Assembly: GCA_044222185.1 (NCBI GenBank)
Contig: JBGANV010000011.1
Span: forward strand, 113,611-177,610
DNA: 64,000 bases
Reading direction: 5' to 3'
Source: Planctomycetota bacterium
GTDB taxonomy: Bacteria > Planctomycetota > GCA-002687715 > CAIWVZ01
The position numbers and the translations under genes are program-made. Shown one piece after another: positions 21,061 through 22,203 of this stretch. Every line of letters begins with the position of its first letter. Position 1 is the stretch's first letter. The notes below the pieces were generated by a model that saw nothing but the letters and a program-made list of their open reading frames with translations, ran no database searches and was not told the origin of the DNA.

Positions 21061-22203
21061 TCAGAGGCCGGAGATCTCGCTCGTGATCGCCTGCTCGAGT
21101 TCGTCGGGCTTGAACCCGAATGGTCCGGGCGCGGATCGGTACGCGACGCGTCCCTCGCGGTCGATCAGCACCAGCCGATCCGGCCAGGCCTCGTACGCGC
21201 GATCGACCGAGTTCGCCATGTCGTCGACGAGTGCCGGGATGGGCTCGAGCGCGAGACGCGTCATGCACGACGCGGCGACCGCATGGCGCTCGGCGGCGGT
21301 GACGGGCTCTTCGACCATGGGCAGATCGGCGCTCGTCATCGGCCACGGCGAATCGATCGCGTGCGCCTCGCGAATGTAGACGACGAAGAAGCTGACCTCG
21401 CCGCGATGCTCTTCCCAGAGGTTCTTCAGCCGACCGGCTGATTCACGGAAGGGCGGTCAAGTGAAGCTCCCGAAGATCAGCGCGACGGGGCGTTTGCCGC
21501 GAAGGGATGAAAGGCGAACCGGCTCGCCACCGGCTTCGGGCGCGAGTTCGAAATCCGGAGCCATCTCGCGGTCTTCGGCTGCGATGGCGCCGACCGGCGG
21601 CTCGCGCCCCTCGGTCGCACGCTCGCGCGGGAGCATGATCCCGTCGCGGTTCACGTCGCGGCGATCGAACCCCGCGAGGGCTTCCTCGACGGTGATCGCT
21701 CCGTCGTGATTCGCGTCGAGCGCCGCGAGGAGCGAGCCGAACGAATCGGTGGCGCCGGCACGCGGAGCGGCCGCGGCCGGACCCATGTCCGCCCGCGTGA
21801 GCTTGCCATCGTGGTCGCGGTCGGCGCGGAGGAAGCCCGTGGGCAGGTCCTCGCGCCTCAACTGCGCCGCGCCCGGATCGCCGAACATGCGGATGAGGAG
21901 GAACGGCGTGGCCAGCTCGGTGGGCATGATGACCGGCAGGTCGAAGTCGGCCGCCGTGATCGCGCCATCGCCGTCACGATCGAGCGCTCGGAACGCGTCG
22001 CTCCCGCGGTCGTACTCGTCGGCGCGGACCTGGCCGTCGCCGTTCCGGTCGTAGCGCTGCGCGAGGAAGCGCCAGGCCGGATCGCCGCTGGCCGAAGCCG
22101 CGGGAGCGACGGCCGGTGGTGTGGAGGTATAACCGGCCAGGATCACGAAAACCGCGACCACCGACCTGCGGTGCGGGATGCGGGCGAGTCTCATGCCGCG
22201 CAT
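21061..22203 (-). CDS. EF-hand + iodothyronine-deiodinase-like (thioredoxin fold) selenoprotein; UGA=Sec at 21457-21459
   Basis: Reading through the TGA gives RPVALIFGSFT-U-PPFRES...FFVVYIREAHAIDSPW...LVDDM.N....Y.AWPDRL...G..GPFGF, all in one frame (380 aa). Five DxDxDG loops lie upstream. Confidence 0.92.
21426..21441 (-). promoter_or_regulatory. Bacterial SECIS element candidate
   Basis: mRNA reads UGA-CCGCCCUUCCGUGAA-UCAGCC-GGUC-GGCUGA, a perfect 6-bp stem with a GGUC loop starting 22 nt after the UGA. Confidence 0.8.

Follow-up and report, generated by a model that had tools for sequence, protein, structure and literature searches.

A 64,000-nt stretch of DNA from a Planctomycetota bacterium (contig JBGANV010000011.1 of assembly GCA_044222185.1; the whole stretch is called the window throughout) carries on its minus strand two reading frames that are one real, mis-called gene, encoding an exported EF-hand relative of the thyroid-hormone deiodinases. 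The TGA codon between the two frames very likely encodes selenocysteine (Sec), as judged from sequence comparison, and the gene is a real selenoprotein gene in an already known family rather than a new kind of biology. A first-pass annotation, based on the letters of the window, had proposed one selenoprotein gene with a UGA and a hairpin of the selenocysteine insertion sequence (SECIS) type. That proposal is supported by the Sec machinery of the genome, by homologs with TGA or Cys at the same column and by independent contigs. The novelty that it implied was overrated, as the family has been in print since 2005 and the EF-hand fusion is present in databases as a Cys form.

Positions 22203-21064 (minus strand) form a single frame of 380 codons, the sole internal stop being the TGA at 21459-21457, codon 249. 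The two frames originally listed (21457-22203 and 21061-21339) lie in this same frame and correspond to the parts before and after codon 249. Translation may start at M1 (22203) or at M4, which is used by the public gene call. The latter, a 245-aa protein from the window's own contig (P0002), ends at the TGA and is an N-terminal fragment, the split by standard annotation that had been expected. This public call is in error, since it stops at the UGA and so misses the catalytic domain. The features of the gene are as follows.

21064..22203, minus strand: whole coding sequence, 380 codons with one internal UGA; translation with TGA read as U gives one internal U.
21061..21063, minus strand: terminal stop TGA, which ends the 380-codon frame.
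22090..22203, minus strand: predicted N-terminal segment for export or membrane anchoring, residues 1-38, with a basic stretch followed by hydrophobic VVAVFVILAG and Y25.
21622..22074, minus strand: EF-hand module, residues 44-194, from Pfam EF-hand_6/5/1/7, the loop pattern and the helices of an AlphaFold2 (AF2) model.
22050-22015, 21981-21946, 21822-21787, 21717-21682 and 21657-21622, minus strand: five EF-hand loops with the canonical pattern.
21082..21567, minus strand: deiodinase-like thioredoxin-fold domain, residues 213-374, from PF00837, NF038285, and sequence and Foldseek matches in the PDB.
21457..21459, minus strand: UGA codon 249, predicted Sec in FGSFT-U-PPFR, from the TGA/Cys column in relatives and its retention in other contigs.
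21426..21441, minus strand: SECIS-type hairpin UCAGCC-GGUC-GGCUGA, 6-bp stem and 4-nt loop, from conservation, covariation and the criteria of the SECIS model.
21361..21378, minus strand: residues 276-281, the YIREAH motif with which the deiodinase-type insertion loop (277-302) opens.
21265..21267, minus strand: codon of Cys313, candidate resolving Cys in helix 303-316, from conservation and the AF2 helix; the resolving role is a prediction.

The UGA codon, its counterparts in relatives and the Sec machinery

Among 115 distinct relatives compared, the column of residue 249 holds TGA in 81 (Sec forms) and Cys in 34 (Cys forms), an alternation for which the first-pass annotation had suggested looking in an alignment of homologs. 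This column, together with the frozen synonymous sites at the top of the hairpin described below, makes the observation more than a chance one. Residue 249 is covered by 42 matches across 41 related genomes; exactly one in-frame TGA is present in 38 of these, and the four without one are weak matches. The TGA occupies the same column of FGS[FYW]T-U-PPFR...YIxEAH in 19 of 20 fetched loci, the twentieth (L039) being outside the motif pattern used. A search of 301 genomes of the phylum with the profile NF038285 ('deiodinase_rel') gave matches (E <= 1e-20) in 90 of them. One TGA is found in 114 of the 122 match rows and none in eight, so that the gene-call error seen in the window recurs across Planctomycetota.

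A protein database search returned 120 relatives, of which 79, full-length homologs, have Cys at the residue-249 column. Seven database proteins (P0057, P0062, P0071, P0072, P0076, P0089 and P0104) have Trp there, presumably because TGA was translated as Trp in the gene calls, P0009 has Leu, and approximately eleven of the 120, including P0002, are N-terminal fragments ending at FGS[FY]T. A further architecture, tetratricopeptide (TPR) repeats fused to a T4_deiodinase domain in proteins of 377-530 aa, was observed among P0097-P0119. From a scan of species-representative genomes, 80 loci were retained, giving 81 rows (one locus with two copies): 41 Sec forms with EF-hands, 28 Cys forms with EF-hands, nine Sec and two Cys forms without them, and one unresolved. 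According to their record titles almost all are metagenome-assembled genomes (MAGs) of Planctomycetota; a few short Sec forms come from elsewhere (Acidobacteriota, Thermoleophilia, a Tepidiformaceae MAG and a MAG labelled 'delta proteobacterium'), and the isolate Tundrisphaera sp. TA3 contributes one Cys form. At one locus, L139 on the chromosome of a Gemmataceae MAG, a Sec copy (FGNFT-U-PPYR) occurs together with a Cys copy (LGNFT-C-GPFR). On a FastTree phylogeny of the 115 distinct domains the Sec/Cys state requires no more than four changes, against a shuffled mean of 29.5, and the supported clade to which the window protein belongs comprises 46 Sec forms and one Cys form.

Contigs from sequencing runs of two other studies cover the codon independently. 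One from run X3 (703 nt, 21246-21948) and one from run X7 (347 nt, 21212-21558) both bridge 21457-21459 and show no difference from the window at the TGA; the first-pass annotation had named TGC or TGT in reads as an observation that would count against Sec. Elsewhere the two contigs do differ from the window, with nine in-gene differences of which five are synonymous. The TGA is not a sequencing error, because contigs of two other studies keep it yet differ from the window elsewhere. Three of the four differences 3' of the TGA are synonymous, the fourth being E265D; small as these numbers are, the pattern fits constraint on the coding sequence past the UGA.

The window's own genome (7.08 Mb in 16 contigs, 93.8% complete) was scored for the Sec machinery against curated cut-offs. 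All four components that the first-pass annotation had listed for checking lie above these cut-offs: selA (487 bits), the tRNA-Sec gene selC (74.7 bits, 81 nt downstream of selA), selB (330 bits) and selD (370 bits; G000:C14:427704-428624, locus L141:305-1225). The selD gene itself has one in-frame TGA, in the N-terminal GGGU-ACK loop, and thereby supplies the genome with another Sec codon that does not depend on the deiodinase-like gene. Another, divergent selenoprotein with a thioredoxin fold is encoded approximately 4 kb upstream of selA and tRNA-Sec (G000:C1:1627004-1627396; frame from about 1073 of locus L140). It combines a signal peptide and the motif CGFT-U-PPFRR with a long helical extension at the C-terminus, matches Pfam AhpC-TSA (30.7 bits) and not T4_deiodinase, and keeps a Cys at the place of Cys313.

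The SECIS-type hairpin

The hairpin UCAGCC-GGUC-GGCUGA begins 15 nt after the UGA, leaving 21 nt between the UGA and the loop; both the hairpin and its loop position, from the 22nd nt, had been stated exactly in the first pass. The bacterial SECIS model, as quoted in the available text of a 2026 review (PMC13188914), allows a loop of 3-9 nt with G in the first two loop positions, a stem of 4-16 bp, a spacing of 16-37 nt from the UGA and a minimum free energy (MFE) no higher than -7.5 kcal/mol. With the loop GGUC (4 nt), a stem of 6 bp, a spacing of 21 nt and an MFE of -10.1 kcal/mol (computed for nt 10-45), the window hairpin lies within all four limits.

Two further lines of evidence, which like the agreement with the model are stronger than folding energy, come from synonymous sites and from the contrast between Sec and Cys forms, in comparisons that rest on sequences related to one another. 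In 15 EF-hand-fused Sec genes, whose proteins share 36-49% identity, codons +7 to +9 read GCC GGT CGG without exception (15/15); GGT accounts for 17% of the Gly codons of these genes and CGG for 22% of the Arg codons. At twelve other invariant four- or six-fold degenerate residues nearby, third-base agreement is 0.40-0.73. The synonymous sites at the top of the hairpin thus appear to be frozen. The lower stem shows compensatory changes, from UCAGCC/GGCUGA to GAAGCC/GGCUUC or GCAGCC/GGCUGC, and a fixed-helix covariation test found 72.4% of cells paired versus 62.2% in shuffles and 19-49.5% when the helix was slid. Perfect stems of 5 bp or longer, closed by a loop that has G at either of its first two positions, occur in 70/81 Sec forms versus 8/34 Cys forms, the median stem being 7 bp versus 4 bp and the median MFE -12.1 versus -6.8 kcal/mol. 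Loops of the Sec forms begin 14-24 nt downstream of the codon, and 47 of the 81 read GGUC. The loop region of E. coli fdhF contains GGUC, as had also been noted in the first pass. A search of Rfam gave chance-level matches only (E > 1); Rfam is not known to hold a general bacterial SECIS family.

Domains, active-site residues and location

The deiodinase assignment rests on both sequence and predicted fold. PF00837 (T4_deiodinase) matches residues 232-371 with 84.2 bits against a gathering cut-off of 27. The AF2 model, built on a 52-row alignment, has a mean predicted local distance difference test (pLDDT) score of 86.8 and a predicted template modelling score (pTM) of 0.80, with low confidence (pLDDT < 50) confined to residues 1-39. 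The best matches in a sequence search of the PDB were the deiodinases Dio3 (4tr3, E 1.4e-17) and Dio2 (9h48, E 6.7e-14). These were also the top two in Foldseek (mouse Dio3 4tr3, E 9.8e-13, template modelling (TM) score by target 0.78; Dio2 9h48, TM by target 0.80), followed by exported ResA-type thiol-disulfide oxidoreductases (ResA 1su9, E 1.3e-9). Both motifs pointed out originally are present, as FGSFT-U-PPFR and as YIREAH at residues 276-281. The Y, E, A and H of the latter are each found in 80/81 Sec forms and 34/34 Cys forms. Arg343 is equally well kept (80/81 and 34/34), Arg253 (76/81 and 34/34) and Cys313 (74/81 and 32/34) are also conserved, and Ser246, Thr248, Tyr276, Glu279 and His281 are conserved across relatives too.

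Functional residue numbers of Dio2, taken from the available text of PMC11592359, were placed on a sequence alignment of the window protein with the Dio structures. Dio2 Ser127, Thr129, Sec130, Tyr157, Glu160 and His162 are kept as Ser246, Thr248, U249, Tyr276, Glu279 and His281. Three other positions are Pro in the window protein. The second relay His (Dio2 His182) aligns with Pro300, a Pro in 77/81 Sec and 34/34 Cys forms; the substrate clamp (Dio3 Arg275, Dio2 Lys241) aligns with Pro359, where 31 of the 81 Sec forms have Pro and 25 have Arg, with Arg in 32/34 Cys forms; and the distal Cys (Dio2 Cys205) aligns with Pro323, Cys313 of the bacterial family lying ten residues earlier.

Similarity to peroxiredoxins is partial. 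The match to Pfam AhpC-TSA, confined to residues 213-281, scored 26.5 bits (cut-off 26), and Redoxin scored just above its cut-off. The peroxiredoxin active-site motif is PxxxTxxC, and this motif is absent from the window protein, which reads P239-VALIFGSFT-U with Pro at -10 and Thr at -1. We take Arg343 to be the equivalent of the peroxiredoxin catalytic Arg and helix 303-316 to be that of the resolving-Cys helix of Tpx/BCP-type peroxiredoxins, to whose resolving Cys we would liken Cys313.

The five EF-hand loops described in the first pass were recovered as 12-residue canonical loops (DxDxDG-type, acidic position 12) starting at residues 52, 75, 128, 163 and 183. Pfam EF-hand_6, EF-hand_5, EF-hand_1 and EF-hand_7 score above their cut-offs, and in the AF2 model the module is helical, mostly with pLDDT > 90, with helices flanking the loops. 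An identity as lanmodulin or XopAW was rejected, the scores being far below the cut-offs. Regulation by Ca2+ through the EF-hands is speculative; outside the cell, a Ca2+-stabilised structural or docking module is more likely than a regulatory switch.

An exported protein, as proposed in the first-pass annotation, is supported by the N-terminus. Residues 14-24 of the window protein are hydrophobic; a hydrophobic N-terminal 12-mer before the first EF-hand occurs in 103/115 distinct relatives and a lipobox-like motif in 26/115. The closest relative (L021) has LLAGC where the window protein has ILAGY. Codon 25 (22129-22131, minus strand) is TAT (Tyr) in the window and TGT (Cys) in contigs of runs X3 and X7, completing the lipobox ILAGC, and these sibling strains are predicted to encode a lipoprotein; Tyr25 reflects either variation between strains or an error in the consensus of this assembly. 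The hydrophobic N-termini, together with the lipobox in relatives and sibling strains, therefore suggest that the protein works outside the cytoplasm. Export by the Tat pathway was considered and rejected: relatives of the window protein do not share the twin Arg of its HRRS motif (by eye).

Genes next to the window gene encode proteins with FG-GAP, CarboxypepD_reg or DNA_alkylation domains or have no Pfam match. Within 1.5 kb no neighbour is common to the 20 fetched loci. In the 4-kb flanks of 81 loci, DUF1559/N_methyl genes recur in 20 and FG-GAP/ASPIC genes in seven, and the window's locus belongs to neither cluster. The genes for DUF1559 (SBP_bac_10) proteins with a prepilin-type N-terminal methylation motif adjoin the deiodinase-like gene mostly at Cys-form loci (L081-L136). 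The DUF1559 and FG-GAP/ASPIC families are hugely expanded in Planctomycetota, and given the abundance of DUF1559 its adjacency may be due to chance. Two metatranscriptome runs each gave one short contig within the gene (X11, 21169-21401; X19, 21889-22079), neither of which bridges the UGA; they were not used as evidence of expression since DNA carry-over is possible.

Proposed mechanism, alternatives and known systems

We consider it highly probable, on the comparative evidence above, that the gene encodes an exported selenoprotein of 380 residues, membrane-anchored or periplasmic, in which a SECIS-directed Sec249 takes part in an extracytoplasmic selenol/thiol redox cycle with Cys313. SelB and Sec-tRNA(Sec) would bind the GGUC-loop hairpin so that UGA codon 249 is read as Sec. 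In the predicted mature protein, an EF-hand module with five Ca2+-type loops would pack on the deiodinase-like thioredoxin-fold domain and, when loaded with Ca2+, would serve as a structural or docking module. The selenolate of Sec249, surrounded by Ser246, Thr248, Arg253, Arg343 and a Tyr276/Glu279/His281 network, would attack the electrophilic atom of a small extracytoplasmic substrate. Cys313 would then resolve the oxidised selenium as a selenenylsulfide, and an extracytoplasmic thiol-disulfide relay could re-reduce the Sec249-Cys313 pair. Our best guess, which is a judgement, is that the substrate is not an aryl halide but an oxidant, either peroxide-like or sulfur-based. A redox role is ranked above aryl-halide reduction because three deiodinase residues are lost, because the next-best folds are exported thiol oxidoreductases, and because the authors who described the family in 2005 expected a redox role, according to the available text of their report (PMC1088965).

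Several observations weigh against this reading. The 66-nt region folds with z = -0.28, 69/200 dinucleotide shuffles folding at least as well, and synonymous-codon resampling of the window hairpin gave 101/1000 sequences as stable or better; across Sec forms the resampled fraction is below 0.5 in 31/35, most only modestly. Two of four Cys controls, L056 and L057, fold unusually well (34 and 33 of 1000). Both are Cys-type, full-length NF038285 paralogs from genome G136 with unusually stable hairpins at the SECIS place, which may be relics of the SECIS of a Sec ancestor. Folding energy was therefore judged too weak on its own as SECIS evidence and was replaced by synonymous-site conservation and the comparison of Sec with Cys forms. 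RNAalifold over all 35 Sec sequences gave no pairs and no single consensus, because the stem register shifts between clades. The window protein, with Cys in place of Sec, scores 232.2 bits against NF038285, below the cut-off of 250, and is thus closely related to that family but falls short of its equivalog threshold. Because this assembly has Tyr in place of the lipobox Cys, the exact anchoring is uncertain. Lastly, no conserved neighbour gene pointing to a reductant or substrate was found in the window, at the 20 loci or at the 81 loci with 4-kb flanks.

That the TGA is a real stop, leaving two genes or a decaying pseudogene with the downstream frame outside the protein, agrees with the behaviour of gene callers, which end there (P0002), and with a hairpin energy that is not exceptional. 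We nevertheless find it scarcely credible: the TGA or Cys of the relatives falls exactly at the active-site column, a stop would cut the catalytic domain in the middle of the active-site motif, conservation across the phylum extends to the downstream part, in which strain differences are mostly synonymous, and the genome holds a complete Sec machinery. Readthrough of the UGA by a near-cognate tRNA (Trp or Cys), giving a full-length enzyme without selenium, is very improbable as well. Nothing specific points to it apart from the functional Cys forms of the family in other lineages, whereas the hairpin with G first in the loop at a SelB-type distance occurs in Sec forms and is mostly lacking in Cys forms, its top is frozen at synonymous sites, and selA, selB, selC and selD are kept.

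Of more substance is a true reductive dehalogenase, in which Sec249 would abstract the halogen from a halogenated phenolic and the EF-hands would act as a Ca2+ switch; we regard this as unlikely. Dio3 and Dio2 are the nearest solved structures by both sequence and fold, FGSxT-U-PPF, YIxEAH and the insertion loop between them are retained, and the residues proposed to form a proton relay (Ser, Thr, Tyr, Glu and His) are conserved. However, the relay His, the clamp and the distal Cys are replaced by Pro300, Pro359 and Pro323, and the dehalogenating enzyme suggested by the first-pass annotation is weakened by these three positions and is not supported. Ca2+ outside the cytoplasm is usually not limiting, and no halogen-related genes were found among the window neighbours or in the flanks of the relatives' loci. 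The available text of the 2005 paper also expected a different, redox function (PMC1088965). A broader form of the idea, that the EF-hand-fused exported Sec enzymes are Ca2+-dependent extracellular dehalogenases of natural or man-made halogenated phenolics, and bacterial counterparts or possibly the evolutionary source of the thyroid-hormone deiodinases, is in our view quite unlikely. If the dehalogenase reading were true, it would provide the first substrate for a family that has been without one since 2005.

The redox selenoprotein that we favour belongs to the bacterial deiodinase-like selenoproteins reported in 2005 by Zhang, Fomenko and Gladyshev (PMC1088965), whose available text describes Cys homologs, a bacterial SECIS and an unknown, presumably redox, function. 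Shared with that family are PF00837, an in-frame UGA aligned with Cys, and a SECIS just 3' of the UGA. Reviews of 2022 and 2026 (PMC9312934, PMC13188914) list the family, in their available text, with the redox motif UxxC. The window clade, in contrast, has U-P-P-F with no Cys at +3, like the animal enzymes, and all 81 Sec forms read U-[PG]-P-[FY] and lack a Cys at +3; the UxxC of the review tables either belongs to another subfamily or is imprecise. The term 'EF-hand' is absent from the available text of the 2026 review (PMC13188914), and a full-text literature search, judged by titles and the beginnings of abstracts, found no paper on a deiodinase/EF-hand selenoprotein fusion. The family is among the few selenoprotein families common to bacteria and animals, and no bacterial member has a known substrate. 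The locus is thus a well-supported test case, with a full-length sequence, a defined SECIS, the candidate resolving Cys313 and the family-specific Arg253, and it also provides a list of deiodinase residues that are kept and not kept.

The same EF-hand and deiodinase architecture is found in the Cys-type Planctomycetota proteins of NF038285. Relatives match profile positions 34-346 of 347, and full-length Cys forms are 400-430 aa long with both EF-hand and T4_deiodinase Pfam domains; the JGI name for such proteins is 'Iodothyronine deiodinase/EF hand'. Compared with this Cys clade, the window protein has Sec, FGSFT-U-PPFR in place of FGNFT-C-GPFR and a fifth EF-hand loop, and it lacks the N-terminal 'GWF' segment.

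ResA/TlpA/DsbE-type oxidoreductases and atypical 2-Cys peroxiredoxins share with the window protein export and the pairing of a nucleophile with a second Cys, but the window protein has no CxxC and carries the 26-residue deiodinase-type insertion. In common with Dio3 and Dio2 (4tr3, 9h48) it has the Sec of xGSxT-U-PPF, the YIxEAH motif, an insertion loop and, in the D/E-R-L strand, the conserved Arg. It differs from them in lacking the relay His, the Arg/Lys clamp and the distal Cys, in having its own conserved Cys313 and Arg253, and in carrying an export signal and EF-hands rather than a single transmembrane anchor. Furthermore, the SECIS of the window gene is bacterial and lies inside the coding region.

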